Positions 1-58,211 of a stretch of DNA of 64,000 bases are shown one piece after another. The DNA is from Porphyridium purpureum (taxonomy: Eukaryota): assembly GCA_008690995.1 (NCBI GenBank), contig VRMN01000001.1, positions 3,286,001 through 3,350,000 on the forward strand. The letters run 5' to 3'. The position numbers and the translations under genes were made by a program. Positions within the stretch are counted from its first letter, which is position 1, and every line of letters begins with the position of its first letter. The notes under the pieces were generated by a model, which was not told the DNA's origin, did no database searches, and was given only the letters and a program-made list of their open reading frames with translations.

Positions 1-1741
1 GCCGCTAGCGACTGGTGGAATCGACGCAAACGCAAGCCAGCAAATATTTTTCCATGCGAAAAGCAGGGCTTGGCATGAAATGCAAGGCCATGAGGTATTG
101 TGACCAGGTGGCACGGCAGCTCTACTGTTTGTTGAACGAGATTCGCGCGTGCCCTTTGGACGTGAATGAAGATCGTAGATCAAGCTTCAGAACGCGCCTC
201 TGGGCGTTTCACTCACACAGCAGGACGGTGTAGGTGCTTAGAAGCGGAGCTTGTGTGGCCGGGTATCAAGATGTGCAAGAGAGGGAGACCGTGCTAAGCA
301 AAAAGGCATGGGGTGGAGGGGGCTTGAGCGCATGCATCACATGCGGCCACGTGCTTAGTTTGCTTTCTGAGAGGGCTCTGCAAGCAGAACCGAACCGTTC
401 AATGGATCAAGTGAGAAAGAGTCACATTATTCGCTCCTTGACAGAAGAGTCATTTGATTGGAAAAGAGTCACATCAAGGTTGATCGTTTCGCCTCTGGTT
501 TTGTACCACTGGCTGTTGTCCCAACCAGGAAACCCGTCAATACAGAGAAAAGAAGACTTGTCTTTAAATGTGCGACCGTTTACAGAAGGGTATTTCGCTT
601 CCAGGCAGGCAGCAGACATTGAGCATCTGACAATGAGAAGCTCTGCATGAGGAACCTAGATTTGAGTGTCAGGACCTAAACAACAGCACGCCGAGTCCGT
701 CCCAGCTGCAGAACTTCCATTCGGTTCTCGAAACCATCCTTAAAGTCGAAATGGTGAGAGAGCTTGGAGACGAAATGGATACCAAAGATTCTGAGCACGC
801 CACGCCGCATCACGCCATGACACAAACCGGCCGGAGTGATGCAGTGTCTCGAAGATCCCGCCGTCCGATTGATTTCCTCGGCTAGTGTTCCCAATGTTTT
901 GTAGAGAAAGAAGCAGGTGCGCTACATCAGCTTGTTCATCAGCATGTCGGGCATCATCTCCTGTCTCTTGAAAAATGTGCAGGGCAGTCTGTGGTCTCGG
1001 CTACCTTGTGCGGCTTTGGGGCATCATTAGAGATGGCTCAAAGCACGTCCCTGACGCTGGAGTCTCGCGGACAACAAAGCAAAGCTTGCATGACGATCAG
1101 AGACAGTTTGCACTCGGTGCACGAAATCGGAATTTTGGTTGACAGTAAAGATGAGAGACACATGCGTTTAAGTGTTCCCAACGGCTATTGGTAGGATGCT
1201 GGAGGACGCAAATGCGGAACAGTGCCGCTGGCAGCTGCAAGCTCACCCGATGACCATGACAAGTGTCATCCGGCGAGACCGAATCGAATCCATCGGAGGC
1301 GGCTTGAGCAGCTATCGATCGCCGGCTGCTCACGAATGATGCAGCAGTCCTCGCGCGCTTCTTACACTGTCATCCAGGCCAACATGTGTAAGGATGAACC
1401 CCTTTTTCGCAAGAGTTTATGCAAAGCACCTCATTTAAGTAGAGCGCGCATAGGGTTTTGTTTGCCTGTGGCTTTTCTGATAACGCAACAGAACGCTCCG
1501 GGCAGGACTCGGTCTGACACAAACGCGCCATGTCGCGCGATTCACAACGCTTTCGCGACCACGTATTCGCCGCGATCATGATGCCTCCAGCGCAGTGCTC
1601 GGTTCGCTGCGTTGTGCGTGCTCGTCGGCTTGATGCATTGTCGTATAAGGTGCGTGAAGTCGCGTGCGTTGAAGAGTGGTTACCGAACAAATGCCAGACG
1701 ATTGCCAGACGTGCGGAAGGCAAGCGGGCAAGACGCAGAGA

Positions 1742-15896: not shown

Positions 15897-18800
15897 CTAC
15901 TTGATGTTGAACATTTGCTTCAGCTTAATGACAGTCTGCCAGTCCTCGCGCGACAGCTCGTCGCGGAAATGCTCTTTCAGTACATCGATTGACTTTCTCG
16001 TAAGCCGGCTGTAGATCTCGTTCTCCATATCCAGGTGGCGGCCGAACAAAATGTGATCATAGTTACCGCCACCAATCTTGACGGCCACGTTTTGTCCAGC
16101 CTTGGCTTCTGAGACCGCTTTCTTGTCCACCTCGATACCGAGCACGCGCCCAATCTCGAGTACACCATCCACAGCGCCTCCGTAGTCGGTCTTGACTGCC
16201 ATCGGTGCGTTCAGCTTGAGCATTCCCTCCAAGATTTCGCACCCCAGAACAAGCGGGCTCTTCTTGTTGAATACACATTCCGGCAAGATGCGCATGACCA
16301 CAGGAAACACAGCGTCGGACATGGCCTCTTGTTGTTGCCGCTTCTTGACACCTAGCATGTACTCTGTAAACTGGTCGAATAAATGGTAGATGATGTCCGC
16401 CGTGAAGATGGGAATGCCAAGCTCCTCTGCATGGGCTCGAGCGTCGCGCTCAACCTTGACGTCAAACGCTAGAATAAGTGCGTATTCCTTCTTCTTCTCC
16501 AGCATGGTCGAACACTTCATCACATCACGCTTGTTGACGGGACCAATGTTGATGCCAGACACCGGGATTTTGCTTGAGCGAAGGAAATCAAGCAAGGCTT
16601 CAAGCGAGCCAAGCGTGGATGCTTGAACGTACACACCTTCACCTGTCTTGTTCACACTTTGGAGAATGGTTTCCATGTCCTTCACGACTTCTTCCTTGAG
16701 ATAATCAATCTCGTCATGGTCATCCGCGCGCATAGGTACAAGCAGCTGAGTACCCGCCACGGCCTTCTCCAGACCCTCCGCCATGATCTTGATACCTACA
16801 GCGGCCTCTAGCTTCTTGTGGTGTAGGTACTGTCCCTTTACGCGCATCTCCTTCATCGGGTGCGGCGTTAGCAGACCGCGCACACGGGTCACAATGGGCC
16901 CGTCTAGCCCGCAAACCACAATTGTCGCGCCTTCCTCCAGGTGTCCTGCCGTCAGCACAACATCAATTGTGGTACCAAGCCCTTCGATCATCTTCACCTC
17001 GATAACCGTACACTGCAGCGAGTCAATAAACATGAGCCGCTGCTCCAGCATTCTCTGTGACAAGGTCACCAGCATCATGAGCAGGTCGGGAATGCCCTCC
17101 CCTGTGTGCGCCGATGTCGGAATCAACGAGATCGTGCGCCTCGGATCCTTATTCTCCCAATACAACTCCACATTCAGCCCAATCTCGGCAAACGCAAGCT
17201 TTGTCTGCGCCACGCGATCCTTAAACTCGCCAAGCACATGCTTTTTCTGCTGCTTCAGGCTATCCTGCACCCCACAATCCTTGCCTGCCTTCCAGTCAAA
17301 CAACCGGTCAACCTTGTTGAGTGCCACCACAAACGGATTTTTGCGATTCCGCAGCAAGTTGATACTCTCAATAGTTTGTGGCTCTAGCCCATGCATGATG
17401 TCGACCACCAAAATCGCAATATCGCACAGAGACGAGCCGCGCGTGCGCAAGTTTGTGAAGCTTTCGTGTCCGGGCGTATCGATCACCAGCAGTGAAGGGA
17501 GGCGGTACACCATGTCGCGCAGTCCTAGCTTGTCCACTTCTTTACGTACCGCGTCCATTGGCATGTACGTCGCACCAATCTGCTGCGTAATTCCACCCGC
17601 TTCACCATTCTGTACGTTCGTACGGCGGATTCGGTCCAAAATCTTTGTCTTACCGGTATCGACATGCCCAAGAATGCAAACCACGGGGGAACGCAACCGC
17701 TCCTTACTCGCGCACAACAGAGCCTCCTTGCGTAGTTCCTGTCGCTTCAGTCGAATCGCGAGGACACGCTTGCGACGCTCTATTTCTTGTTTCGTGAGGA
17801 CGACATCGTCTTCAGAGCTAGAATACTCAGAGTCGCTTTCCTCTTCCTCCTCATCATCATCGCTAGCCTCGGACGCATCCTCAGAATCTGCTTCTTCCTC
17901 GCCCGAGCTCGAGGCACCATCAGCGCTACTTTCTTCCTCCCCGGATGACTTTGCCGCTCTCTTTTCATCTTGGCCAGAGATGCGAACTACATCATTCTCC
18001 CCAGCGCTCTCCATGGGGGCGTCATCTCCGCTGAGCAGCTTGCTGAGCTGCTCTTCTCGCTGCCGCGCCAAAATTGCGTCCAAATCTTCGTCGTCGTTTT
18101 CGCTTTTTGCTTGGGCGACAAGCGCTGTAGCCCGTGAGTCCCAGTCTTCGTCATCCCACGAAGCTGCTGCCGCTGCGTCGTGAGATTCAACACGCTCCTT
18201 GTTGGCAGTGGACACGCCAGCCGCAGATGGCAGCGGCGCTGCACTGCCAGCGATAGCACGGCTCGTTTCAGCACGGGTTTCGCCTTGCTCTTGCTGCGGC
18301 GTCGGCGACTGCTTGGAGGGGCCGGGCTTCTTCTTTCTTGTTTCATACACGACCCGCTTGGGTTTTGCTGCATCTGCGGACGAGCCTCCAGTTGCAGCCA
18401 TAGCAGGGATGAGCCCTTGATCGATCAGTTGCTGCTTGTATTGCTCAGCCTTACGCTGCTTCTCCTGCTGTGCCTTGGTGAGAAGCTTGCCCTCCTTGCG
18501 CAACTGTTCTTTTCGCAACCGCTCAGACTCTCTCTTCCTCTCACGGGCGGCCGCCGCCTCTTGTTGAGCAAGCTCCTCTGCGCGCGCCGCGGCTTCTGCT
18601 GCACGCGCTGCTTCGAGTCGCGCATGCTCAGCTTTTTCTTGCTCTAAGCGTCTCTTCTCAACCTCTTCACGCATCTTGCGCACTGCCGCACTTTCCTTAC
18701 CCTTCTTCGAAGGTTCAGCGGCCTGCGCTGGCGCCGCACCTTGTGCGTCTGTCCGTGCATCATCTTGACTACCCAAGACAGCCCCTTCCTTCTCCGCTTT

Positions 18801-18965
18801 CTCCTTTTGTTTTTTTCTCAATCTCTTTTTTTGTGCCGCCGTCAGTTTCGATTCATCGAGTTCTTCTGGAGCGGCATCAATATCCCCAATAGCCGCAGAC
18901 GCAGCGGCTGCAGCCTGTTCATGCGCGGCAGACTCGGGGCTTGGTGTCTGCGTATCGTCAATTGG

Positions 18966-18999
<34 letters not shown>

Positions 19000-20339
19000 G
19001 AACTTGCTTCTTTAGGTCCCGCTGCTACACCAAAGTCCGCCAAAAGAGCGTCCAGATCCTCATCCTCGGCCCCAGGACTCTTTTTCTGCTTTTTCTTCAT
19101 TTTTTTCTTCTGTGCTGCGGTCAAGGGTGCAGCCACTTCACCATTTGCCCTTTCTTTCTCCTCTTCGCCAAAAAGAGCCGCACCTGAATCTACTTTGTTG
19201 GCGGCTGTGCCGCCATCGATTGCTGCCAAAAGAGAGTCCAAATCTTCCTCGTGTTTTTCAACAGATTTTCCTTTGCCCTTTTTCTTTTTCTTTCCTCCGG
19301 ATGTCGCCGCGGCCTTGTCTTCTGTGGCGCCTTCTCCTTCAAGCTCCAGAAGCAAAGCATCCAGCTCCTCCTTTTCCTTCCCAGATTTTTCTTTCGCCCG
19401 CGCCGTCTCCATAGCCGCAGATCCCCTCGATCTTTCTGCCTCGTAAGCGGACATATCCTTTCCCTTCTTACCTGCTCCGTGGTCGGGGGCGGCCTTCCCC
19501 TTGTTCTTTGATTTTAATGACGATGACTTTGCTGCAACATCATCGCCCGGTTCCTCATCGGAGCCGAATCCAAACTCAATCATATCGCCGCCTTGACTTT
19601 CGGACAGGGAAGCTTTGTCCTTACCGCCCCGCGGCTGTAGCGCACTTTTCGCCTTTCCTTTGGCCTTCTTGCCCGCTCCGAGCACGTCCAGATCTAAGGC
19701 ATCGCCATTTTCATCGCTACTGTCATCACCTACAATAATGGTGTCCAAGCCCGCAGCCCTCCCAGCATTGCTCTTGGTCTTTTGCCCTTTCCGCTTGGGC
19801 TTTAAGTTCAAATCAATCTTGAGGCTGGCTTCGTCATCCTCCTGCGAGTCATCGTCACTGCCAACGAGCACGGTCTCGACTCCCTTGAGATCTTTCGTTC
19901 CTGACTTTGATTTGCCCTTTCCAGCGGAAGGAGCGACGACAGTCTGCTGCTCCTCGTCGTCGTCATCGTCCCCTTCATCGCCTTCCAGAGCCAACGCAGC
20001 GAATGCCGAGGTCGGTGCTTTCCGGCTGCTCGATTCTCTCAAACTCACATCCGCGTCTTCCTCGTCATCGTCTTCCTCACCTCCAGAACCCAGAGCTGCA
20101 AAGCCCGAGGACGCGCCACCTTTTGCCTTCCTGCGCTCACTGACGATCGGTTCCTGCTGCGCGTCGTCGACATCCTCGTCGTCATCGCCCAGCAACGCAA
20201 ACGCAGCCGCGCCCTTCACGCCCGCTTTCGCGCCGCCCTCCTCACGCCCGCTGCTGCCGCCTCCCTCCTCCTCACTGCCATCGCCCAGCGCCGCCGCCAT
20301 TCTGGCAGCCGCCGCGCGCTTCTTCTCCTTCTTCCCCAT
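15897..20339 (-). CDS. EIF5B: Translation initiation factor eIF5B
   Basis: Charged low-complexity N-terminus; GTPase motifs LRSPVVCILGHVDTGKT, GGITQQIGA, DTPGHESF and NKVD; QASTLGSLEAL. Confidence 0.96.
18968..18997. repeat. (CAG)10 trinucleotide repeat encoding poly-Ala in eIF5B
   Basis: Direct read. Confidence 0.9.
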
Positions 20340-20460
20340 GACCTCCCGTCACGAAATCCCGCCCCCTCCTCGTGCTCTGTCCTCGCGCCGCAGATACCCC
20401 TCACTATATCATGCACTCCCTCGCACACATGCACTGCGAGCTGCCGATTCCAAACACACC

Positions 20461-21642: not shown

Positions 21643-24600
21643 TCACTTTCGTGCTCGGCTGGCTCGGCGCTTCTCCTTCTTTCGATCTGAAGCGGAGATG
21701 CGCGTGTCTGCGGTAGTGGCACCGTCATGGCCGCCATGGATAAGGGCGTTGCCATCTGCGGGCCAGCCGCCTGGTCCACCAGTCGCGAGCGCGGGCAAAG
21801 TAGTGCTGCCGACGGGCACCGGCACGCTGCTTTGAACCAGAGCTGGGCCATTGGGATACTGTCGCAAGTAGATATGTGGGTTGAGAGGGTGGTCCGAGTC
21901 CACAAAGAATAGGTCTGAGTGCTTCAGAAGGAATCGCTTCAGACCGCCGAAACGCTCCTTGAGAACGGCCCCCCAATCCTGACGCCCAAATGTGGATCGC
22001 AAGTATTGCCCAATCTCACCGATCAGTAGGCAACCGTTCTCGGCCAGAATTTGGGTGAGAAACGCAAGTAGACCCAGCTCGCTCACTTGACTGTGCACAT
22101 ACAGTCGCACGTACTCGAGATTATTCCGCAGCGCCGTCGAATCGGCGAGGAACGGATTCTGGTTTGGGAAATACGCCAGCGCGCCTGTGCATACAAGATA
22201 TTCTCGCGGGTACAACGCGGCTTCGCTCGGCGAAGCGCGCTGATAATGGCGACCCGCCAGCGCATTGGGCAGATTCAATGCCAGCGTGTCTGGCACCGGA
22301 CTATTGAACGATTTCTCGAGCAAAAGGCCCAGATTGGACACCTCAGTTTGCCACACCGACAAATGGCGCTCTACAGCCGAGCCAAATAGCTCTCGCAAGC
22401 TGGCTTGGGAAGGGCTTGCGCAAAATTTTTCACCTGCCTTGACTCCTTTCTGGAAGCCGCGTGCAATGACAGGAATGCTCTTCTTGTTCATCCAGCGGTT
22501 CACGTTGCTCGCACCATCGAGAGGGTCGAAAACGTTCATCGATCCAGAAACGATCGCGCGGCTGGCTGGAAACGACGCACTGACAAATGCAAGTTGCGGC
22601 GATGATCCCGAGGGTGCTTGTGCTTGCGTTTCGAACGCCGCGTGATGCGCGTCACTACTGCCGCCCGCATCCGACGTGCGCGTCACGTAGAACGCGTTCA
22701 GAAAAGAAGGAGTGATCAGCAAATCGTCAGCCAAGCTTGCCACGGATGTATTTGAGCCCAACCCAGACACCGATGCGATCGACCCGTCTTTCAATTTGAG
22801 AGGGCCATGAATGCTGATGCCCCACACTAACCAGTCGATGCGGGAGTAAAACGCAAGAAAACGAAGCAGCGCATCGCACGGTGTATGCATCACTGCATGG
22901 TATGCGTTGAACAGGTAAATGACCATGATTTCAACGGCCTTCACAGAGAGTCCATCATGCAGCTGAGCAGGAGACTGCGGTGCGCACTCTTCGCTCGCAG
23001 CTGCCCATCCTGAGCTCGAACCCAATACTTCTTGGGACGAGATATAAGACTGAATGCTGGCCGGGGCGTCATCAAAAAAGTTCTCTTCGAGAATGCGAGC
23101 ACCGTACATGCACCAAGCGAGGATCACTGTCAGCGAGCGCTTGACCAGATTCCGCTTTCCGACCAGCTGGTCAAATTCATCCATAAAAAACGCAAAGTTC
23201 ATGCTGTTCACTTGGTTTAAGCTCACACGTACTCGCAGCTTTTCTGGCCCACGAAACGTCACACACGGAGAACTCCCGGCCTCACGATGTCGAAAGGTTA
23301 CACCAGATACACTCAAAGCGTCCCTTTCCTTTATCCGCAACTGGTGCTGCTGCTGCTGCTTTCCGTCTCGTAATTTTCCATCCTCGGTCATAGGCCCCCC
23401 TCCATGCGCACAAGTCGATGAAGATCCGGCACAACTACACGCAGACGACGAGTCGTGCGGTGACCGCACCTTACCAAGCACCACACTCTCACAAAGACAT
23501 GACATGAGGCGCACGCACCAACTCAGATTTTGCGCGTCCATGGCTTCGCTTGCTTCGCTATGGTGATTCGGTCCCTCGGACCCCGGCCCGGCCCCGGCCC
23601 CGGCCCCGGCCCCGGGCCCCGGCCCCGGCCCCGGCCCCGGACCCGGACCCGGACCCCGCAACAAGAAACACGCCTACATCTAACGTGCTATCCGCAAGGT
23701 AGCACTTGTATGCAAAGCCGCCAAAACAAAATGTCTGTCCGTTCAGCGCTGCTTTGACAACTGCGGCCGTATACTCAAACACAGCAACACGTAGAACCTC
23801 TAGAAATTGATTCGGCATGATCAAATCAACCAGTCGGTCAACCAAGTGGACCGCTGCTGGACTAGAACGCAACCTCTCCTTTTGGCTACTCCTGTTGGCT
23901 TGACTGAAGTTGTTGCTCATTCCAGAGCTGTTATCGCGCATGCGCCGTGACGCGATCGATTCATCAATGTCTTCCGCGTCGCTAAGTTGCATTCTTTCAA
24001 TGCCTGCCGCGTCAGCCGAAAACGATCGTGGTGAAAATGGGGGCTGATGAAGTCCCAAGCGACTGAGGTAACCCATCCTAATAGAGGAGGAAGACAACTT
24101 GTCGGGAAAACCCGCGGCACCCTGTATCACACCATTTGCACTTGCACCCACGCTGCTCATCGCGCCCATCTCAGAGCCTGCACGTCCCACTCCAACACCC
24201 AAACCTGGCTGCAAATGGGAAGATGAAAAGAGAGACGCCGAGTTGGGGTTTGCAGCCTTTTCCATTCCCGCATCGCTCACAAAAGCACCCTCCAAATGTT
24301 GCTGCGGCTGTCGCGACAGCGGCGCCGCAAGTTCATTGCTAGCTGAACGCCCTCGGCACGTACGAAGGGACAGAGGTGGTTCTGACACGCCTCGGAACAG
24401 GAAGCCTTCAAACAATTCAAGAACATTTTTCCAGCCCACACGTTCAGCGAAACTGGCAAACAACGCACCGAGCTCGAAAGCATCCTGTCCAGAGCCTGTG
24501 TACACAGCATTGGCTTCGGCACGAGCAGTCCCTGCACACGCCGAACCACTGTGCTCAACACGCCCTGTCTCGCCCTGTACGTCTGATGGCACCTGTGGCT

Positions 24601-27001
24601 GAGGGAACTCCTGGAAATTAAAGGAGACAGAGTGCTGCGGGCGACTCAGATACCTGGAGCGGAAGTAATCGCTTCCATGTTGACTCCCTCGCCGTTCTGC
24701 CAGATCCAGCATTGAGGTACCCTTGGAAATCGTGACCGAGAGCACCTTGCCCAATTCATTCTCCGGATTGATCATGTCGCTCGGCCATTCCATCCCGTCA
24801 TCGTCGTCGCTATTTTCTGTAGAGGTATTCGGGTAAGCATCCATAGAAATAACTTGTCCAGCAAGTAGGCCCTTTCCGGATGCAGGATTTGCCTCTTCTT
24901 CTCTGTGCTCAATCTCAGCGAGCAAGCGCGTAAGCTGATCTTGCGCCGATGAAGAAATGCGCACACGTCCCGTGAAGGCTGGACGGGTGCTCTTCTCCAC
25001 AACTGCCTTGAGCTGCATTTTCAGTGCATCCATGCTTGGGCTCGGCTTGAAGCCGGAAGTCGGCCGCACGATCGAAGCACCCGGACCAAACGCAGAAACG
25101 TGCGGCGGTTGCGGAAAGCTTTCTTCTACGGTTGAGTAGAGGCCTTGGCCCGGCAAAAAGTACGTGCCCTGATGTACCGAAGTCATGGGTGAATCAAACG
25201 AGTCTTGTAAGATTTCCTCTACTCGGTTCTCAAAAACCTTGATCATATCTTCCTCGCTCATACTTTCTATCGCGTGAACTGCTGCTGTTCCTGCATTGCC
25301 GGCGCCGGTCGAGGGCATCACGGACGGAGGCAAGCCTCCTTCATTCTTGGAAACCGTGTCCAAAGGTGGCGACGATGGTGAGACAGACGGATACACACGT
25401 GCTGAAGACGGCGGTGGCTCGGATTCGGGGCCTCGTGAGTTCTGGCGTTGTTGCGCAGCATGCGGGCCCATACCTTTCTCCTTCCGTATCGGGGGCGGTG
25501 CATGGAGATCTGTTACGCTCATTCCCGAGTACTTACTGAAAAGTGCGTCGAGCGTACTGCTCTGCTCCTCCCTAAAATGCGACTCAGCCACGTATCGTGC
25601 ATCAATGACGCGAGGGAATGTTCGTGCAATGGCTTGTGTGATGCAAGCTTCGACGTACTGCGTAGTATGATGATTTTGTGGATACAGCACTAGCTGTGAG
25701 ATCCATTCATCAGGCTGTGGAGCATAAAAGGCATGTCTCAACAACGCAAGCTCCTCCAAACCATCAAACACGACGACAGGCACGCGACTTTTCCTGATCA
25801 TCTTAATCACACGAGCACCAACGCCTTGAACCTCGGGAAATGGATCCAGAACATCGGAATTCCAATTCCACACCCCGCTTGCGCTCTTCGCCATGCTCTG
25901 CTCTACTGTTGACGACATGCGCTCTCTCACTTCGGAGTATACTGACGATGATGCATGCTGGTACCTGGCGCTATCCCTGCTGTGCGAGGCCCTGCCATTA
26001 GACGTGGACGAAACGATCATGTCTGTGCTTGGCGAGGGCCACAAGAACGAGTTGTCCGTGTCTGGCGTCATTCGTGAGCTGTCTTTCACCGTTCCTGCGG
26101 GTGTAGAAGCCGATGGCATGCTCGGAACTAGGTACGGAATGCCACGCGTTAACGCGTGCTCAACCGAAACCCCGCGTCGCAGCAAGTGCTTGAGCGAGTT
26201 CATGTAAGCATACTGGTTGAGAGGACAAAACAGAATTGTAAAGGTCTTCATCGCATAGCGCACAGTTGTCGACGCCCGTGATGACGCAGATCCATGCCTG
26301 AGTGGGGCGGCACTGCTGCCGTTGGTGCCTTCGCCTGAGAATTCCCGAGTATGTTCGCGCTGTTGCTTCGGATGCATTCGCCGAAAGACTGAAATTGAGA
26401 GCTCGAGAATGCCAGCCTCGGCGCGGAGGTCACGAGCAAACTGCTGAAGGCGCTTGTGCGTTGTTGAACTCTCCACCAAAGACATGGAAGACGAATGTGT
26501 CACCTCGCTGTCGAATACAGACGAGGAAAAACTGGTCGACGGTGTTAAACCAGAATGATGGGCGCCTGTGTTGACAGTGTCGTCGTCAACATCATCACTG
26601 CCACTGCCGCCATCACCATCATCAATTACGTCAGCATCGAGATCATTGCACGTGACTTTGGGCGACGCATCTGCAGAGGCGCGTTGTGCGTCTGCAGTTC
26701 CATGCCGAGCACGAGCAGCTGGCTTTCCACTGGCCGGGTAGGCGGTACTGTTCTCTACAGAGGCTTGTCCATGGACGCTGCTACTTGGCGCCGGCTCCGC
26801 TGCTGGTACCCCGGGTGCGCGACTTTTCGACTTTCGCAGGGCTGAGCGGGCCGCAATCGCCGCGGAGATGGACACGAACGTAGCCTGCTGTATTTGCTTG
26901 TCCAGAAGCGGGAGCACTTGGTCGGCATTGTATCTATCAATGCGCACTACCGCCTTATCCTTGAGTAATTCCGCATGCTCTTGCTCATGCTGCCGCGGCA
27001 T
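21643..27001 (-). CDS. Fusion of a degenerate CAF1/PARN-like ribonuclease, a degenerate PAP/OAS1-type nucleotidyltransferase and a C-terminal winged-helix-like domain; frame broken near 23615
   Basis: ORF 27001-23558 carries PARN-like blocks and the NTase N-lobe (IMPNQFLEVLR...FCFGGFAYKCYLADSTLDV). ORF 23664-21643 continues the same NTase (FDQLVGKRNLVKRSL..ILAWCMYGARIL, LLRFLAFYSRIDW, NVFDPL). Removing one base joins the two ORFs. Confidence 0.75.
23578..23657 (-). repeat. GGGGCC/GGGTCC hexanucleotide repeat (~13 units) inside the coding sequence
   Basis: Direct read; encodes GSGSGS-GAGAGA and contains an extra C at the frame break. Confidence 0.92.
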
Positions 27002-30066: not shown

Positions 30067-31116
30067 TCATATTCTTTGCGAAGCGCCGACCTTCTCTTGG
30101 AGCAAGTAGTCGACGAGAGAGCACTCTGGCGCGCTACTCCAAGACTGAGGGGTTGAGGACAAGAATGTGACACGTCCGCTGCCCTTCTTTCCTTGCGGGC
30201 GTGTGAATGAGTGCACAAAGTAGTACTGCGCGAGACCATGCAACAGCATCCGCTCATAAGAGCTTTCCATTTCCACTGGTGTGCGTAAGTTTGGAATGAG
30301 AGCGACTTCGCTCACGAGACCTTCCAGTTTGCGCAGGCTCGATTCACACGACTCGACTTTGGACAGCATCACGCCTTGCGCCTTGCGACTGACCTTGGCG
30401 AAACGATACGGAGCCGTTTCCGCGCAGCCCGTTGAGTGCTCCGAGTTCGTGTTCTGCTTCCCTCGTGCGTTCTGGGTGCACCTGGTCGTTCTCGGCTGGA
30501 GCTCGGAAAGGAATTGCTCTTGTTCCTCCTCAGTGACGTTTAGAAATGGCGCAAAGGAAGTGCTCGCTGTTTGCGAATCGTGCAAGTCGTTGAACACAGA
30601 CGTGTACGAAACGGCGAAAATCTGCCGCAGTTCGGCCGGGTCGTAGAGGTCAAGCGAGTCGCCACGTTCATGGCGCACTCGAAGGGCGCATTTCTGAAGG
30701 TACATATCGTTCAGGGCACGTCGCATGCGGCGGCTAACTGCCGGGCGGCGTTTCTCGGTCTTTTTCGACGCCGAGCTTGGCGGGGTCGAGCTGCCGACCG
30801 CCGCCGAGTTTCCGCCCGAAACTGCCACTGCTGAGCCTGACACGGCTGGTGGACCGAAGAAGCCGGCCTTCAAGCCATGACTCTGGTTTCCAACGCCCAA
30901 GCTCTGCGTGGACGACGGGAGCCCTCGGTACTGTTCCTCGCTTTTCCGGCGCCTTGGTGCGGCGCCATCGACGGAGCATCTGCGTCTGCGCTCCCGCTCG
31001 GCCGCCACTTTCATCAACGCCGGCGAGAGCGCATGGTCCTGGTCGACGTGCTCGCCCGAGCCCAGATGCGCGCGGCTGTAGCCCATGGCCACATGGTACT
31101 CGTGAGCAAACGACAT
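30067..31116 (-). CDS. R3H-domain protein (R3HDM4-like, with an R3H-associated N-terminal region)
   Basis: SSYERMLLHGLAQYY (RxxxH), preceded by RRMRRALND and TEEEQEQFL blocks. Confidence 0.75.
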   Translation of the reverse strand: MSFAHEYHVAMGYSRAHLGSGEHVDQDHALSPALMKVAAERERRRRCSVDGAAPRRRKSEEQYRGLPSSTQSLGVGNQSHGLKAGFFGPPAVSGSAVAVSGGNSAAVGSSTPPSSASKKTEKRRPAVSRRMRRALNDMYLQKCALRVRHERGDSLDLYDPAELRQIFAVSYTSVFNDLHDSQTASTSFAPFLNVTEEEQEQFLSELQPRTTRCTQNARGKQNTNSEHSTGCAETAPYRFAKVSRKAQGVMLSKVESCESSLRKLEGLVSEVALIPNLRTPVEMESSYERMLLHGLAQYYFVHSFTRPQGKKGSGRVTFLSSTPQSWSSAPECSLVDYLLQEKVGASQRI

Positions 31117-32954
31117 GAGCGCGGAGCACACCCAGCCCGCCTTTGGCCGGGCGCAATCTTCGTGGAAGTGGCTTAGAACGACGTCTCTACACTGAGATGG
31201 CGAAGAGCGCTTTCAAGCTTGACCGGTCCTTCACCCTTTGCCCGTGAGGAGTCGTGGGAGTATCCGAGGCTGCAGCGCACACATGGCTACTTCAACATCT
31301 TGAGCTCCTTGCGCACGGCTCAGGAAGGCGGTACAGTTCCACCCACGCGGGCATGAGCGTTACTTGGGCTCTATGCAAACGCGTTGATTTTGTGGAGCGC
31401 GTTTTGTGTGTTACGGTTCCGTGTCCTGCTCATGTACAGCTAGGCAGCAGCCAGAGCGGGGCGCGCGCGCATCGAATCTCAGATCTTTTGTTCTGAAACG
31501 AACGAGAAAAATGAGCATCGCAGCGTCACTCCTATGAAAACACAGCTGCGGTGTGATAAACGCGACGCATGCGGCAAGTTGATACTAAAACGAACGCGTT
31601 TGCATATGGGATTGAAAGGGAGTAGTGTACAGTGAACCGGTAACATGTAACCGGTTTAAACGGTTGAATCCACACGCAGTCGCAACAGTTGCCGGCTGCT
31701 GTGGCGAAGGAAAGGTTTGCAGGGGTGAAGAATGGCAGGGGTTGCTGAAGCCACCGTTCGTCAAAAACATCCGGTTCGACAAGTGGTGACAGAGTTGAAG
31801 CTGTCTCATCACCGCCGGGAAAAATGTAGGTAGGTTGTGAAGTATGATGTCATACCACTGCACCAGACCGTGCTCCTGTGTCGAAAGCGTCTACTCTCTC
31901 GCTCCTTCCTCTCCATGCCCAACGGCATCACCTGCTTGACGGCGATCTGTGCGGGATCAAATGCGTCCACGAGTGGCAAGACCGACGCAAGGCACGCCCA
32001 ACTGACTCCATCTGACGCAGACCTCACGCATCCCGAACTACACGAGACGCACAGTCCAAGCCATCTCCATCGACCACCACGATAAGCAGCACTATCCAAA
32101 CCGCTCCGCGAAAGGACTGAGAATGAAATTACTGCTTCGCACACCACCATCCCGAGACGGAGCACGTGAGCCGCAATTCGTGGATCCCGTAACTCAACGC
32201 CTTGCCGATGACAGTTCGCTCGTTCGAGCCGCAGAGACGCCTCTCATGAAGACAGACATTGCAGAAGGTGCTGATCTGAATTGCGTGATGCTCGCATTCA
32301 GGTTCCAGACTGATGTCGGCTCCGAAGCCTGTTCTGTGCCATATTGCGGTTCGACATGATTCCCATGACCGGAATATCTACTTGACGTGACGGAAAACAG
32401 GCAAGCCCGGAATGGTCGGCGTCCGGGACGGCGTCCCATCCTGGAGGTCTTTTTATGACAAGGGCCATGCCGCGTTCTCTGGTCCCCTCAGCACCTGCTC
32501 TTGGATGATAAAGAAGAAGAATCTGCCGCACGAATTTCTATACAAGACCTTGAAAGAGAACCTGCAAAGATTCGTCACACAGATTTTCGCCCCTCGCATC
32601 TGAAGCAATGAGAAGCGTCCGACGCGTTACTCGCAGCTCTCTGTATCAGGCACGAATGTCCTTTTCCCGGTCCACAACCTAGTCAACGGAATAGACCGTA
32701 CATGGTTCCAGGCTTGCAACCGCTGGTCTCTCACCCGGCAGGACAAAGTTAAAAGAGCCTGTACTAGACCACGATGTGATACATGTGCCCAGACGTTAGC
32801 TCGTAGCCAGAAGGAACGTTCACGGTATCGCAGTCGCGGAAGAGCCGGGTTTTTCGAGGGCACGTGTAGCTGGTTTCATCGTCCTTTTCGACGTCTTCAA
32901 CGTGTGCCACGCGTCGATGCTGTCACGACGGCGCGAGATCTTTTTTGAGTGTGA

Positions 32955-33725: not shown

Positions 33726-34245
33726 CGGCTGTCGCCACTATACACCGTTTTGCGACATCCGCACGAAGGCCACTCAACGCACCCTACCAGCGCTACACGA
33801 AACCGGGTTTAATCCGTACCGTCTGCAGATACGCATTAAACCTGTCGAAGGGAAAGCTGCGCGCGTGGCTTCAACTTTCGCGCTGGGTCACGTTTTAGAC
33901 TGCTCGTAAACAATGACAATGGCGCAGTCCATCGTGCAAACAAGATTGCCACTTTTCGGGTTGGCGAACTCTCACAGTGTCGTACGCACGAGAGGGTGAT
34001 TCTTCCGAGAGCCGCCAAGCACGTTCCTGCTCGAGATACAAGCTGCATGACTGACAGTCGAATGTTTTGTTTCGCAGTACCATGGTAAAAGAACGGGAGA
34101 CGCTCTCGGGCGCCAATACATTTCCATTTGTTTGCGGAGCGTGAGGGGAAGAGTATTGGCACGTGTGTTTGAAGTAGGCGGCGGCGCGGGAGAACTCAAA
34201 CACACTTTCGCGAAAGGGGCTATCGTTGCCCTGGCGGTGGATGCA

Positions 34246-35830
34246 ATGCAGCGATTTACCATCTACGAGGATGTTTTCATTCGGGTGTGCTGGACCGATT
34301 ACAGTGGGCTGCAGCGTGCGCGCGTCGTGTCGGCGCGCCAACTGCTTCAGTCGATGCCCGCACGAGCGACGATCATGAATAATGGCATTCGCTTGTACGA
34401 GCAGAAAGACTATGACGCTGTCGATGGACTTTCCTCGGTCGGAAAATACGGAATCGGTATCACAGAAGCCTGCCTGGTGCTCATGCCGACCGCCGATTGC
34501 TTCCCCAAGAATTGTGCGCTGGGATCGACGCGAGAGGTGCGCATTTTCCCGGACTGGAAAAAGCTCAAGGCTTTCGAACTCAACGTGCCGCTTCCCTTCC
34601 TGGGCCAGTCGAAGGAGCAGAGCTTCTGCTATGTCCCCTCGTTTCTCAGGCAGAATGATGGCTCGGACTGGCCTTTTTGCCCCCGCACGATCCTGCACAA
34701 AACATTGAACAAGTTCCGCGAACAGACCGGTGGCCTCGAGGTCATGATAGGCATGGAGTATGAGTTCGTGCTGGTCGACGCGCAAACCAAGGCGCCCATT
34801 GCGGGCGATCAGACATACAGCAGCCTACTCAAGTATGATCGCATAGCGCCTTTTCTGGAACGCCTCGAGCGCGTGCTGCACAGTGTGGGCGTGCACACCG
34901 AGCAAATCCATGGCGAGTCGGCGCCCGGCCAGTTTGAACTTCCCGTAAGATTTAAGGCAGCTTCAGACACGGCCGATGATGTTGGGCTCGTGCGGCAGAT
35001 CATTCATGTCCTTGCACAGTTGTACGGCATGGAAGCAAGTTTCTGTCCAAAGCTGAAATCGTCCGCGCCTGGCTCGGGCTTTCATTGCCACTTTAGTCTT
35101 TGGAGAGAGGAAGGCGCGCCGGTGCAGGCAGAATCGGCAGATTCGGGCACCGCCTGCGACAGACACTACCCTGGCGAGTTCCAAAGCAAACGTGTTTATG
35201 ACGGCTGCTGAAGGCGAGCACCTGGCTCGATCCGAGCTGACTGAAATTGGGGCCGCATTTTTAGCTGGCATTTTCCACCGACTGCCTGAAATTATGCTGA
35301 TCACATCCGCATCTCCGCTCAGTTTCCAGCGTGTGCAGCCAGGCACCTGGACTGGTGCGTACATGGTTTGGGGGTATGAGAACCGCGAGTGCCCACTGAG
35401 AGTTCTGCGGCTCGGTCAGAATTTTGAACTGAAGGTCATGGATTCAAGTGCAAATACACACCTTGCCTTCGCGGCGATCGTTGCGGCCGGCCTCCAGGGC
35501 ATTCTGAATCGTGAAGTTCTGCCTGAAGCCACGGACGGAGACCCGCATCAGATTTACATCAGTCAAGTCAAGGCCCAGAAGGCATCGAAAGGAGCCAGTG
35601 GCGAGCCTTCAGAACCTCCACCAGTCCTGGTCAAGCGACTGCCCCAAACGCTCGACGAGCTGCTCGCCGGGGCCGGTGGCTTTCCGTGTTTGTCCCAGGC
35701 ATTTGGACAAGAAGTTGTGGATACAATTGTGGCCACGCGCACAATGGAGAACCAAATGGCCAGAGAGTCTGTCATGAAGCACAGCTCGGACTGGGAATCG
35801 CTTTTCGACGCCTATCGTTTCCGCTACTGA
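34246..35830 (+). CDS. Glutamine synthetase type I-like (FluG/NodGS-type gamma-glutamyl ligase), frameshifted between ~35105 and 35190
   Basis: Frame 1: RVCWTDYSG, CPRTIL, GMEYEF, HGESAPGQFE, GSGFHCHFSLW. Frame 2: ANVF, FLAGI, SFQRVQPGTW, WGYENRECPLR, FELKVMDSSAN. Confidence 0.8.
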
Positions 35831-36765
35831 AAAGAATCTACCGTCCGAGAATCGGAGCGAAACACAATCGTGGAAAAAAAAAACACCTGTATAGCTACGC
35901 TGTCGGCGAATCTTTGAAACATAAATGCAATGTTCGTTGAACCTGGAGCCGAAGAAACAGGCGAGCGACGACCTCCAGCACTTCTGAAAGCCATGGCGTC
36001 CGCACACCATATTCCGGCTCGGTCATCTCCATGCATACCGCCACTTCGGAGCTCATCAGAGGACGCATGTCCATGTCAATCGCGTCGAACGAACCGGGAG
36101 ATGATTCGGCTGGCGCGCCTCAGAAACCGTTCCTGGCTCGCTTTTTCGCTGGCCCAACGATTTGGACGTTTCCGAGACAAGCCGCTTCACCCTTTTGGAA
36201 ACAGCGGAAGGTCAGTTCCTGATCTCTCAGTACCGATCGTCAGGAACATTGTCTCCACTAGCAGATCGCACTGGTTCCCAAGATGCTCGCTCCGTTCTTC
36301 ACGTCGTAATGGATCCTCGACTTCAAGGAAAAGGGAGATTCCACCATTGACGTATGGGACGAAGATAACTTGGTCTCTCATTTCCCAGCTGGCTTGCACG
36401 CTCCCGTCACAAAAATCCGGGGCTCACACTTCGTGTGCCTCGTCGAGTTCGAATTTGGTGCGCGTCAGTCTGGCACTTGATCAGCCAAACTGATCGTGTG
36501 ACTCGACCGCCGGCGGTCGCGACCTCACCTGACCCGTTTCGGCCGGCTTCGCTTTGTACAGTTTCGCGCTGGGAGCCGCAGCATTTCAGTTTGACCTTGT
36601 CTCTCGCCGTCGAGACTGCGCCAACGCTTGGGCGGCCGATCAGACGCTCCTTTTCGTTGAAGATTGAGGCCAGGACAGAGAGCCTCATGTGTGCGTCGGG
36701 GACGTTGAGGCGGTGTCGAGTAGACTCAGGTAGCCAACCGGCTCCTGGTGGTGGAGGCCAAGGCA

Positions 36766-39700
36766 ATGAATAAGCGGAGGCGTAGTCCGGGTCCCACAGT
36801 TTGGACAGTGGAAACTGGCGGTGTTCGAGTGTACCGGACGTGGCGGTATCGCGTCAGACGCAGCGCGTCTACCCAGAGGAGTTGCGTTGATCTCAGTTCG
36901 CAAGCATGCGCGGGAGTCAACGCTGCCCCAAAGCTGCGAGACGCTGTGTGCCAAACAGAGCCACATCGTGAAACAGAATTCAAGTCGCGCCCGGTGTGTG
37001 CGACCTGTGAGACACTCTGTGTGATGTGTCTTGCGAATGAGCGCTCGGTCGCGGCAGCATCGAGCGTAGCGGCATCTCGTGGACCTGTGAACGGTTCGGC
37101 CACGGGAGTTGCACGTGCTGGAGCCGGGGCTGCAGGAAAGAAAGTGAAGCAACCGACCTTGAGGAAGCCCGCCTCAGACGAGAATCATGACGAAGTCGTT
37201 TCTGCAACCCAGACGTCGACCGAAATAGAGGCCAAAGCACAGAGCGAGAGCTTCATGTTCAACTTTCCAGACACGCAACCTCCGTCTTCCTTGTCTTTGC
37301 GAGAGGGGACTCAGACAAAGAAGCCCAAAAACTCTGTTACACCAGGTGAAGCAGGCGAGCCATTGACACGCATCGAGTTCTCAGGCAAAGGGAAGACGAG
37401 TAAGAGGAAGACAGCGAAGATGCAAGAAAAGAAGAACACGCCTTCATCACCCGTGAGGTCGGATGCAGAAGTTCTGGAACGCACGGCCTCTGATGGTGAC
37501 ATTATGGGTTCAGAAATAGCAAGCATCACAGCAAATGTGGAATCGCTTGCGCTGGAGGAAGTAGAACTAGTGCAGGCAGAGCCTGCTTTATCGAAACGAT
37601 CCGGGAAGGGTCGCAAGAAGCGCGAGCCTGTGCAACTTGAGAGCAGGAAGGTCCAGGCGCCGGTGAAGCAGTCCGACGAACAACGAAAGGTCCAAAATGA
37701 AATCACAAATACCGCAGCCTCGAAAATCGAAACAACGCTTGCGAAAGTCATGAAAAGCAGGTATCGTGCTTACTGGAGCATTACCGAGGTGGACGACCAC
37801 GTAGCACAGAAGAAACTTGTCACCGGCCCCATTCGAATTTTTGGGAGGGTCGGATTTGTCACCGATGCAGAGTCTGGTCGTGATATACGCTTGAACGGAT
37901 GGCAAGCGATGAATCGAGCATTTGATGGCGATGTTGTGGCGGTATTAATTTGCTCCTCAGCAGACGCACCACAGTCGGGTCCTGAGGTCGACGAAGACGA
38001 TTTGGATGAGGATTTAGCGGAATCTTTAGAACAGGTGCACACAGAATCCAACGGGTCTTTTGATGCAGGTGATACTTTGCAGGTGCGCTCGTTGGACAAA
38101 GTTCCTCGCGCACGGCTTTCCGGTAAAGTGGTACGTATCTTACGCGCTGTTGGCCGGCGGCTAGCTATCGGCTCGCTTCGTTCGCGTCAAAACGATGACA
38201 AGAAGCTGCAGGAGGATGACTCCATACTATTCTATCCTATTGAAGCAAGTATGCCGATTGGAGTTGTGCCGATACGATCACTTCCTAAGCAACTTCGACA
38301 GGCACTGCAGAAAAGTGGGCTCGCTGTGCTTTCAAGTCGTTTATTTGCTTGCGTGTACACGAATTGGCGCGAGACGTCGCTACACCCTATCGCAAGATTC
38401 ATGGATGATATGGGACAGGCGGGTGATATACGGACGGAGACACGTGCCATTCTGTTGCGCAATCAGATCGTTGCCCAGCCGTATGATGAGTCCAAGTACG
38501 CGGCAGACCTACCTACTAGTGAAGCTGAGTGGCACATTCCGGAAGATGAAATAAGCCGGCGGCGCGATCTTCGGGGAATCCGAATTTTCTCAATCGACCC
38601 AAAAACTGCGCGTGATTTGGACGACGCCCTCTCAATTGCTCGCTTGCCCAGCGGCCTTTTTGAAGTTGGTATTCATATTGCGGACGTGTCGTACTTTGTG
38701 AAGCCAAATTCACAATTGGACAAGGACGCGGCATTGCGCTCCACCTCGGTCTACCTCGTGCACACAGTTATTCCAATGTTGCCGCGCGTGCTTTGCCAGG
38801 AGCTTTGTAGCCTGAACCCTGCCAAGGACCGCCTGTGTTTCTCTGTCCTTTTGCAAATGGATGCAGAGGGGCGCATTCAGAGTTCATGGTTTGGCCGCAC
38901 TGTGATCCGGTCTTGCGTAAAGCTTGCGTATGAGGAAGCGCAGGACCTGATCGATGGAAAGGTTGACCTGGAATGGGCAGCCGGCGTTTCGATTGACGCT
39001 CCGCACACTCTCAGCGCCATTTCTGAAGACGTGCGTGCACTGAATGAGATTGCAAGGCACATGCGACGCCGCCGCTTTGAGGATGGAAGCGTGTCGTTGC
39101 ATAGTACGGAGCTCAACTTTGCTGTCGATCGGCAAACAGGTCTGCCAACAGGCTTTAAAACATACGTTCGTCGTGAGAGCAACGAGCTCGTCGAAGAGTT
39201 CATGTTGTGCGCGAATCGTGCTGTCGCTACGTTCATCAGCAAGGCGCTGTCAAAGTACGCAATACTTCGACGTCATGAACCACCAAAGCTCGATCTTTTG
39301 GACGAGTTTCACGAGTGGTGTAGGGAGTATCTACAGATTGGCGTTGATCTAGATTCCAGCCTGCACGTACAGCAGTCGCTTGCTATGCTCGAGTGTACTC
39401 TTGCTGAGCGAGACATGGCGCACGTCTTCCAGATCGCTCAGCTTCTGCTCACGAAGCCGATGCAGAATGCACGTTACTTCTGCACGGGTGATCTGAACAA
39501 TCCGGCCTTGTGGGGTCACTATGCTCTTGCCTTTGATCGTTATACACATTTCACGTCGCCGATTCGCAGGTACCCTGACTTAATCGTTCATCGCTTGCTA
39601 CAAATCGCGATCGAGATGCACGGGCCGACTGGTCATGTGGATCCGGCCAAAGCTGCTGGATTCAATCTCGACCTGAAAAAGGTCAAAGGTATCGTTGCGA

Positions 39701-40347
39701 ATGGAAATGTTTCCGCAACAGCAGCAGAATGTACGATGAAAAGCCTATCAGCCAAGAAAGCGGAGGAAGAGTGCAAGGAAGTCTTTCTTGGGATCTTGTT
39801 GGACATCACACCACGAATCATGGTTGGGATCGTCATGGGAATTCAGAAACAGGCGTTCACGCTGTTCGTTCCCGCGCTTGGTCGCCAGAAGACATTGCGC
39901 GAGGAAGACCTGAAAAAGTTCGGGGTCTCATGCACAACCTCACTGAACAAAAGCAGCTCTCAAAAGTCCGTGGAACTGGCATTGCGGGAACGGAATGCTG
40001 CCGTCTGCACATGGGACATTCGCTCAACAGATGCGAAACGGATGCGGGAAGAGTTGCAACAGAGAGTAGAAACGGTTGAGATCGGACGAGGCCGTGAAAG
40101 CGATGACGGCATATCGGCGTCGATTCCATCCGGCACATCGAATGCGGCTCGGCTTTATGTGGTCTGCTGCAAGGAGGAGGAAATTCAAGATGTCAGTGCC
40201 TGTGACCCGCCGGTCGTCGATGCACGGTCGACTTTTGTCCTCCAGATGTTCCAAAAGGTGCTGGTTCTTGGAAGCGGTCAAAGAACTCCGCATGTGGCCG
40301 TGAATATCGCGCTGCTACTCAACACGGGGGTACTTGGATTTCCTTGA
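36766..40347 (+). CDS. DIS3L2: DIS3-like exonuclease 2 (RNase II/RNB family)
   Basis: NRAFDGDVVAV, RRDLR, SIDPKTARDLDDALS, HIADVS, LVEEFMLCAN and YTHFTSPIRRYPD; no PIN domain; start codon uncertain. Confidence 0.88.
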   Translation: MNKRRRSPGPTVWTVETGGVRVYRTWRYRVRRSASTQRSCVDLSSQACAGVNAAPKLRDAVCQTEPHRETEFKSRPVCATCETLCVMCLANERSVAAASSVAASRGPVNGSATGVARAGAGAAGKKVKQPTLRKPASDENHDEVVSATQTSTEIEAKAQSESFMFNFPDTQPPSSLSLREGTQTKKPKNSVTPGEAGEPLTRIEFSGKGKTSKRKTAKMQEKKNTPSSPVRSDAEVLERTASDGDIMGSEIASITANVESLALEEVELVQAEPALSKRSGKGRKKREPVQLESRKVQAPVKQSDEQRKVQNEITNTAASKIETTLAKVMKSRYRAYWSITEVDDHVAQKKLVTGPIRIFGRVGFVTDAESGRDIRLNGWQAMNRAFDGDVVAVLICSSADAPQSGPEVDEDDLDEDLAESLEQVHTESNGSFDAGDTLQVRSLDKVPRARLSGKVVRILRAVGRRLAIGSLRSRQNDDKKLQEDDSILFYPIEASMPIGVVPIRSLPKQLRQALQKSGLAVLSSRLFACVYTNWRETSLHPIARFMDDMGQAGDIRTETRAILLRNQIVAQPYDESKYAADLPTSEAEWHIPEDEISRRRDLRGIRIFSIDPKTARDLDDALSIARLPSGLFEVGIHIADVSYFVKPNSQLDKDAALRSTSVYLVHTVIPMLPRVLCQELCSLNPAKDRLCFSVLLQMDAEGRIQSSWFGRTVIRSCVKLAYEEAQDLIDGKVDLEWAAGVSIDAPHTLSAISEDVRALNEIARHMRRRRFEDGSVSLHSTELNFAVDRQTGLPTGFKTYVRRESNELVEEFMLCANRAVATFISKALSKYAILRRHEPPKLDLLDEFHEWCREYLQIGVDLDSSLHVQQSLAMLECTLAERDMAHVFQIAQLLLTKPMQNARYFCTGDLNNPALWGHYALAFDRYTHFTSPIRRYPDLIVHRLLQIAIEMHGPTGHVDPAKAAGFNLDLKKVKGIVANGNVSATAAECTMKSLSAKKAEEECKEVFLGILLDITPRIMVGIVMGIQKQAFTLFVPALGRQKTLREEDLKKFGVSCTTSLNKSSSQKSVELALRERNAAVCTWDIRSTDAKRMREELQQRVETVEIGRGRESDDGISASIPSGTSNAARLYVVCCKEEEIQDVSACDPPVVDARSTFVLQMFQKVLVLGSGQRTPHVAVNIALLLNTGVLGFP

Positions 40348-46690: not shown

Positions 46691-46840
46691 GATATCAGAG
46701 CGTTTCCGCCCCCCGGTGCAATGCTACGACGCTGAAAAATGCTACGCTCACAGCGAGCCTGTGCCTTGCTCGAGCATCACTTTCCCGAGTCCACCCCTTG
46801 CAGCTCTCCCCTTCACCCCCTACCCTTCAACACCCACCCT

Positions 46841-57517: not shown

Positions 57518-58211
57518 TTCTCCCCCTCTGTTCCTGTCGGTCCAGCATCTGCCACCAGACTCCGCATCGCCCCGCTCAACAGCCACACGCGCGCGCGCCA
57601 GATTCCCGCCCAGAATCGACCCCCCACGCGAATCGCATAATTTTATTCGAAATTCGCGTCCGGTACAGTGGAGTATGGTACAGCTGCGTGTTCAGCCATT
57701 GTTCAGCGGGTGTTCAGTAAAATTCATCGGGGACTCGCTCGGAGATGACATATCGTGGACAGTGTCATGCTAGATGACAGTGTGTCATTTACGAGGCGCG
57801 CGGCCGTCATCCGGTCATTGCGGAAGTCTCCATGATGTCAAAGCAATGCGTGCATGGCGGTCGCGAGGCGCGGCCGCACGAACGCACGCGCGCGTGTGTC
57901 TGGTGCTCCGCCACGTGAGATGTGCGACTCGGCGGCGCCGCCGTGTTGCGTGAGGAATCGCGCTCGCGATGCGTTGAGGTTGGTGAAGCCGCTCAACCGT
58001 CGCACAATCGCGGGCACTTGGCGCGCGTCTCGCCGATGCATATCTGACCCGCGCATCGTGCTTCACGCGTGGGTGTGTTCGGTTCGGCGGATCGGCGGTT
58101 CCTCCGGCACGCGCTCCGAGGCAGGCGGCTTGCCAACGCTTTACGGTCGGATGCTTGGGCGCTGACAAGGCGAATTCACTCAGGTAGTCGCAACGTATCG
58201 CGGACTTTGAA

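Follow-up and report, generated by a model that had tools for sequence, protein, structure and literature searches.

Can a protein that joins the fold of a tail-trimming enzyme to that of a tail-adding enzyme, and that appears to have lost the chemistry of both, still have work to do at RNA 3' ends? The question is raised by a minus-strand gene at positions 21643 to 27001 of a 64,000-nucleotide stretch of Porphyridium purpureum DNA (GenBank assembly GCA_008690995.1, contig VRMN01000001.1, positions 3,286,001 to 3,350,000; hereafter the window). A preliminary description, drawn from the letters alone, had noticed there a PARN/CAF1-like part, a PAP/OAS1-type nucleotidyltransferase (NTase) part and a C-terminal winged-helix block, and all of the motifs that it quoted are present in the sequence. 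We find that the fusion is real, conserved and undescribed in the searchable literature, that conservation is far higher in the winged helix than anywhere else in the protein and that, judged from sequence, the catalytic residues of both enzyme folds are largely gone.

Gene structure and orthologues

The P. purpureum gene consists of two overlapping minus-strand frames, 27001-23558 and 23673-21643, and is not one open reading frame (ORF) in the window:

23558..27001, minus strand: ORF1 (P0001, 1147 aa), with the PARN-like domain, a linker and the first NTase strands; a separate protein in public annotation
21643..23673, minus strand: ORF2 (P0002, 676 aa stop to stop), with the remaining NTase, the PAP/OAS1 substrate-binding domain and the winged helix
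23581..23658, minus strand: (CCCCGG)n hexamer repeat, Gly-Ser/Gly-Ala, site of a one-base frame change (sequence; contigs of 8/8 runs end there)

The hexamer repeat is read as Gly-Ser/Gly-Ala in ORF1 before the frame change and as Gly-Ala in ORF2 after it. ORF2 is publicly annotated from the Met at 23541 as P0043, a protein of 632 aa. Read as a single frame, the gene would have ~1,785 codons by coordinate arithmetic.

The nearest named relative of ORF2 is from Porphyridium aerugineum (48% identity). A search with ORF2 for longer relatives retrieved one protein, P0003 (1978 aa), which matches both halves in order and shares its cluster with a transcriptome protein of P. aerugineum. Eight of the 12 matches in a second search are full fusions, namely P0003, the proteins of Timspurckia, Galdieria partita, G. 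sulphuraria and G. phlegrea, two Logan records, one of which clusters with G. yellowstonensis, and one ENA record; the single-frame fusions of P. aerugineum and Timspurckia are transcriptome records. A Pyropia fragment matched the winged helix only. An exhaustive search added P0068, P0077 and P0081, which have the PARN-like part, and P0070 was assigned to the fusion group by eye, from a family-specific block and the motif III helix, with no hidden Markov model match. The counts of catalytic residues given below refer to 11 orthologues (the window protein, P0003, P0005-P0011, P0068 and P0077). Metagenome scan no. 1 found no relative, and the two candidates from scan no. 2 (L001 and L002) were rejected as chance matches opposite bacterial RuBisCO small-subunit genes.

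The preliminary description had placed a tail-trimming and a tail-adding fold in one protein and had proposed to look for the same fusion in other red algae; single-frame orthologues now bear this out in P. aerugineum, Timspurckia and four Galdieria species. It had also not recognised the fusion as described. We likewise found no literature description, in searches that left subscription journals largely uncovered, though databases already carry the Galdieria proteins labelled with both Pfam domains. The fusion is not mentioned in the available portions of PMC3985635, PMC2848206 with its supplement, and PMC12026948; the OST-HTH paper, in its text and its one supplement, names neither nucleotidyltransferases nor these algae; and NCBIfam returned 0 families for 4 proteins.

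Sequence comparison identifies the PARN-like and NTase halves as one gene, because P. aerugineum, Timspurckia and the four Galdieria species encode both in one protein, a reading that corrects the public annotation of two separate genes. An assembly slip in the GC-rich repeat is the probable cause of the frame break. It seems improbable that the gene is truly broken or split in this organism, be it by a true frameshift, as a pseudogene or through an intron that removes the repeat, although several points speak for it: the halves are annotated as separate proteins, no full-length version was found for this species, and GT-AG pairs able to restore an open frame are present. In addition, each half is covered by the contigs of 8 sequencing runs and no contig crosses the repeat, so the continuous frame is inferred here and not read directly. 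However, the break falls within a single domain, the NTase, after its D-x-D strand and before its third-Asp strand, where the loop is also variable in the orthologues; the ORF1 stop lies only 16 bases from the ORF2 Met; and every complete orthologue is a single frame. No splice joint was seen in the contigs of the 8 runs, two of them recorded as RNA and three guessed to be RNA, and the contigs of these RNA and guessed-RNA runs reach up to or into the repeat; they support none of the GT-AG pairs, and an intron was rejected. Both halves are also under purifying selection, with 28 coding differences between strains across the 8 runs, 16 synonymous and 12 non-synonymous (ratio of non-synonymous to synonymous polymorphism, pN/pS, 0.24; p 2e-4), and no stop; the sole strain indel is in frame, of 6 bases. 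A poly-Gln tract at 23344-23359 shows an in-frame 6-base length difference in 4/8 runs.

Enzyme folds and winged helix

The N-terminal part of the protein contains the following features:

24392..26950, minus strand: PARN-like pseudo-nuclease of the CAF1 family with a DEDDh fold, aa ~18-870 (Pfam, PDB profile, orthologue model)
26858..26866, minus strand: motif I, S46 and A48 at PARN D28 and E30 (model range; Pfam position 1 for P0068; PARN motif)
25751..25765, minus strand: motif II, D413 (PARN N288) and E417 (PARN D292) (residue-level alignment to PARN 2a1r)
24482..24499, minus strand: motif III, T835 (PARN H377) to D840 (PARN D382) (PARN motif and C-terminal helix of the model)

Although the preliminary description had left the choice between PARN and CAF1 open, several lines of evidence place this domain, which is interrupted by long low-complexity insertions, nearer to PARN. 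The Pfam CAF1 model matches ORF1 above its cut-off (E-value, E, 9.9e-12), the N-terminal part falls in CAF1/PARN clusters of the Atlas (0.90), and a PDB search with a profile of ten sequences returned PARN as its only significant sequence match (E 6e-7). For structure comparison we used an AlphaFold2 model of residues 21-1220 of the compact orthologue P0009, and not of the window protein. Its best agreement with PARN has a Z-score (Z) of 24.2 and a root-mean-square deviation (rmsd) of 3.4 over 257 residues (model 1..533 = PARN 1..430), and PARN structures score Z 22.6-24.2 as against Z 20.9-22.0 for CAF1/Pop2. The comparison thus confirms the nuclease fold and, on the model, makes the domain PARN-like more than CAF1-like. 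Pfam found no R3H or RRM match, and the Galdieria segment at the place of PARN's R3H has only 60-64 aa.

In registers that for motifs I and III we take partly from the PARN motifs and not from a residue-level alignment, the D28 position is occupied by S or K and keeps Asp in 0/11 orthologues, the E30 position is acidic in 0/11 and the H377 position holds His in 0/11. Short-segment PDB searches with motifs I and III gave no relevant match. The remaining positions fare differently: D292 is acidic in 10/11 orthologues, D382 in 3/11, the Porphyridium-type proteins retaining the acid, and D413 is invariant in 9/9 aligned orthologues. The DEDDh loss that had been proposed therefore stands for the D28, E30 and H377 positions, but E417 (at D292) and D840 (at D382) are still acidic in the window. 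In PARN itself, each single mutant of D28, E30, D292 and D382 is inactive, as reported in the accessible text of PMC3116163.

The NTase is divided between the two frames as follows:

23678..23722, minus strand: NTase signature, GG for GS and T-L-D for D-x-D (gap-free comparison with plant NTP2/6/7/8-type enzymes)
22417..23529, minus strand: remaining NTase together with the PAP/OAS1 substrate-binding domain (sequence comparison, model)

Both the Pol-beta NTase and the PAP/OAS1 substrate-binding domains are present (precomputed PF26180), and the Atlas puts the C-terminal part in poly(A)-polymerase clusters (0.94). The P0009 model matches URT1 (Z 16.0, rmsd 4.8, 261 residues), GLD-2 (14.8), TUT7, Trf4 and Cid1 at Z 14-16. 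Structural similarity was thus found to both folds on which the preliminary description had staked its claim (PARN Z 24.2, URT1 Z 16.0). In the plant-type comparison enzymes the D-x-D motif is kept in 25/25 and the third Asp in 24/25, whereas at most one acid survives at the three NTase Asp positions in 11/11 orthologues, a different one in different lineages. In the window, R149 (23227-23229) occupies the third-Asp position and K replaces the Tyr of the plant S-T-Y-A-L-E helix. None of the 8 orthologues shown has that NTP-binding-helix Tyr, while N-x-F-D persists in the nucleotide-recognition loop, as does an Asn further downstream, and 7 of these 8 have the K-R-S helix Lys. NTase catalysis depends on D-x-D and the third Asp, and a double Asp mutant kills CutA, according to the part of PMC5689010 available.

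The earlier proposal of a PAP/OAS1-type NTase with two of its three catalytic Asp gone is therefore upheld; the change of GS to GG, which it had counted as a defect, is not the family's defect, since Galdieria keeps GS. Lineage-specific replacements (D28 by S or K; the first NTase Asp by T, I, V or G) look as expected under relaxed constraint. On its catalytic residues, the protein would fall outside both the PARN/CAF1 deadenylases and the active terminal NTases, and in its working it would be akin to known RNA-binding modules derived from pseudo-enzymes.

Three further features bear on the parts of the protein outside the enzyme motifs:

21856..22146, minus strand: LOTUS-like winged helix (Pfam WH_Egal E 0.003, below cut-off; model)
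21664..21684, minus strand: basic patch after the winged helix (matched in 8/9 orthologues)
25166..25222, minus strand: family-specific block I-x-x-L-L-x-D ... S-x-H-x-G, inside an insertion of the PARN-like domain (conserved across orthologues)

The C-terminal winged-helix block noted earlier is recovered with confidence: a model of the window's last domain is a winged helix with a predicted local distance difference test score (pLDDT) of 85-94 over the domain, and all of its top matches are winged helices, led by the Tejas LOTUS domain (Z 8.0, rmsd 2.5, 73 residues) and including TDRD5 (7.5), with the LOTUS-type domains of TDRD5, TDRD7, Egalitarian, MARF1 and Oskar at Z 6.0-7.5. The Pfam OST-HTH model did not match it. 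Among nine orthologues, invariant columns number 54/82 in the winged helix, 44/367 in the NTase, 35/525 in the PARN-like domain and 0/115 in the linker. Identity between the window protein and a Galdieria-type orthologue follows the same order, at 82% for the winged helix, 31% for the NTase and 24% for the PARN-like domain. With 54 of 82 columns invariant, the winged helix is likely the key interface. From its sequence, the basic patch is a possible nuclear-localisation signal. A second short family block, Y-L-x-R-L-G-L, occurs on the same strand in a disordered region at ~24040-24080, and this block and the one at 25166-25222 are possible partner-binding motifs.

Wider family and proposed role

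A search of 1.84 billion representatives gave 760 matches at E <= 0.001, of which the best 150 were classified. Among these 150, there are 100 proteins with NTase and winged helix, 36 with the NTase only (plant type) and 14 with the winged helix only. All three Asp, by a strict pattern, are present in 11/100 of the NTase plus winged-helix proteins vs 31/36 of the NTase-only ones, and the third Asp in 28/100 vs 36/36. These comparisons show the NTase and winged helix to be a module of a wider family, with at least 100 clusters, in which catalysis has often been lost.

The domains joined to this module vary. In a Pfam scan of 92 of the 114 winged-helix-bearing matches, 29 proteins carried PX, 6 a U-box, 5 an exonuclease of the RNase T type and 2 CAF1. 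The U-box is C-terminal, in one clade (P0086, P0088, P0090, P0100, P0113 and P0126), and PX, noted in 30 proteins, is N-terminal. A local search enlarged the group with a C-terminal DEDDh exonuclease to 8 proteins (P0087, P0179, P0129, P0162, P0166, P0124, P0143 and P0079), with the three exonuclease motifs intact in 6/8; all 8 have a degenerate NTase, so that the 11 proteins with an intact Asp triad include none of them. A FastTree tree of 106 modules, unrooted and without other NTase families, separates clades but does not order events. In it the fusions with a PARN-like domain (11 rows, support 100) are distinct from those with a C-terminal exonuclease (8 rows, support 99), and no PARN-like domain occurs outside the clade of red-algal type (11 rows, local support 100). 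By these sequence criteria an exonuclease has been joined twice to a degenerate copy of the module, each time at a different end and from another DEDDh branch, and the fact that this happened separately points to RNA metabolism by 3' exonucleases.

What, then, would the red-algal protein do? We lean, by a small degree, towards a non-catalytic adaptor at RNA 3' ends, by analogy and because of its folds, the repeated exonuclease fusion and the precedents of dead folds that bind RNA. In such an adaptor docking would occur mainly through the winged helix, onto a structured RNA or onto a conserved partner such as an RNA helicase or decay factor. Both dead folds would retain the clefts that bind RNA and would grip a tailed 3' end, which would be shielded or passed to active tailing or trimming enzymes; the basic patch hints at a location in the nucleus. 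Red algae are noted for compact genomes. The gene has been retained from Galdieria to Porphyridium despite the loss of both catalytic sites, so its function must need the folds and not the chemistry.

Several observations weigh against the adaptor. The whole-chain P0009 model is weak (mean pLDDT 47.5, predicted template modelling score, pTM, 0.36, 13 sequences), its low mean pLDDT arising because about half of the chain is disordered. Winged helices outside the LOTUS group score alike (RNA-polymerase subunit Z 7.8, forkhead domains 7.1), and Foldseek with the winged-helix model returned no match at E <= 0.001, so that the LOTUS assignment is not significant. With a linker free of invariant columns, nothing shows that the two folds act as a unit. 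PX, the commonest partner of the module, and U-box point to membranes and ubiquitin as much as to RNA ends. Finally, in Egalitarian ~15 A separates the exonuclease site from the RNA, so that 3'-end binding is not required of a dead exonuclease.

We consider it possible, if rather doubtful, that the protein is a scaffold or allosteric regulator with no grip on RNA ends, its dead folds pairing with active enzymes (a PARN-type dimer, an NTase partner) or sensing a nucleotide and its winged helix binding protein. The constraint on the winged helix, far above that on either cleft, would suit such a role, as would the PX and U-box domains on the same module elsewhere and the retained residues of the nucleotide-recognition loop and K-R-S helix. 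However, the loss of the NTP-binding-helix Tyr together with the missing metal ligands argues against nucleotide binding, and both retained folds and both exonuclease fusions derive from RNA 3'-end metabolism. That one domain is still enzymatic through a rebuilt active site, like the 'active site switch' proposed for the DEDDh-derived Maelstrom fold (in the available part of PMC2628886), is improbable: the acidic D292 position, the invariant D413 and the D382 acid of the Porphyridium-type proteins would speak for it, but the D382 acid is missing in 8/11 orthologues, residues at the lost positions differ freely by lineage, and neither His nor Cys occurs among the PARN-like domain's 35 invariant columns, an argument against an arrangement of the Maelstrom type.

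If the adaptor is extended to the whole family, the NTase and LOTUS-like module could be an undescribed eukaryote-wide hub of RNA 3'-end control that has repeatedly abandoned tailing and acquired a 3' exonuclease: in red algae a PARN that has since died, elsewhere a live DEDDh exonuclease. The red-algal protein would then be a purely non-catalytic 'tail reader' that recognises tailed ends by its two dead sites, choosing between trimming and tailing via its winged-helix partner. We offer this broader scheme tentatively and think it on the whole unlikely. Whatever its role, the protein is a direct test case for the reading of RNA 3' ends by dead domains of the tail-adding and tail-trimming kinds, and the winged helix, being nearly invariant, provides a bait for a partner search.

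The window around the fusion gene is gene-dense and intron-poor. Its other genes include an IF2/eIF5B-type GTPase (15897-20348, minus strand), an R3H-associated-domain protein (30067-31212, minus), an RNB/Dis3-like exonuclease (36724-40347, plus), these three being RNA-related, a glycosyltransferase 2 that weakly matches NodZ (43727-46723, minus) and a fusion of ApbE and flavin-reductase-like domains (58188-60716, plus). At 34051-35830 on the plus strand, a glutamine-synthetase catalytic domain is divided between two overlapping frames that switch near 35120-35200, through an intron or a second assembly slip.

Comparison with known systems

With PARN, its best sequence match, the red-algal protein shares the whole nuclease fold (Z 24.2, PARN residues 1-430), but it has lost the D28, E30 and H377 positions and is fused to an NTase and a winged helix. 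The closest named relatives of its NTase are plant proteins with the same motif spacing (28-31% identity, E to 1e-24), which we assign to the NTP2/6/7/8 clade from database names and background on the family and not from a tree with the Arabidopsis NTPs. Unlike the red-algal protein, these keep their aspartates and are without a winged helix (0/25) and without a PARN domain. NTP6/7 are reported to cytidylate pre-miRNA, the other NTP2/6/7/8 members being unexplained in the portion of PMC13030794 at hand. The wider family of PX-, U-box- and exonuclease-bearing proteins has the same, mostly degenerate module, but the PARN-like domain occurs only in its red-algal-type clade; with its active, dead and exonuclease-fused members, the family forms an unstudied branch beside the poorly understood plant enzymes.

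Two precedents concern folds used without catalysis. Egalitarian has LOTUS-like domains and a non-catalytic exonuclease domain and binds RNA (PMC13186709, in part), and our protein resembles it in joining a winged helix to an exonuclease fold that likely does no chemistry, with a weak WH_Egal match and Z 6.5. However, Egalitarian belongs to another exonuclease branch, has another domain order and no NTase, and binds double-stranded stems, so the likeness is an analogy only. Dead NTase domains serve binding in NRAP (PMC2794190) and in NTD1 of TUT4/7 (PMC6240794), as far as the accessible sections of these papers go; NRAP/Utp22 and TUT4/7 NTD1 share with the red-algal protein an NTase and PAP/OAS1 pair without catalytic carboxylates, but have no exonuclease fold and belong to different NTase branches. 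A pairing of trimming with adding is also known from the CPEB complex, where the opposing PARN and Gld2 are held on one RNA; there, in the available text of PMC2323027, both enzymes are active and are separate proteins, whereas in the red algae the two folds share one chain and both catalytic sites appear to be lost.

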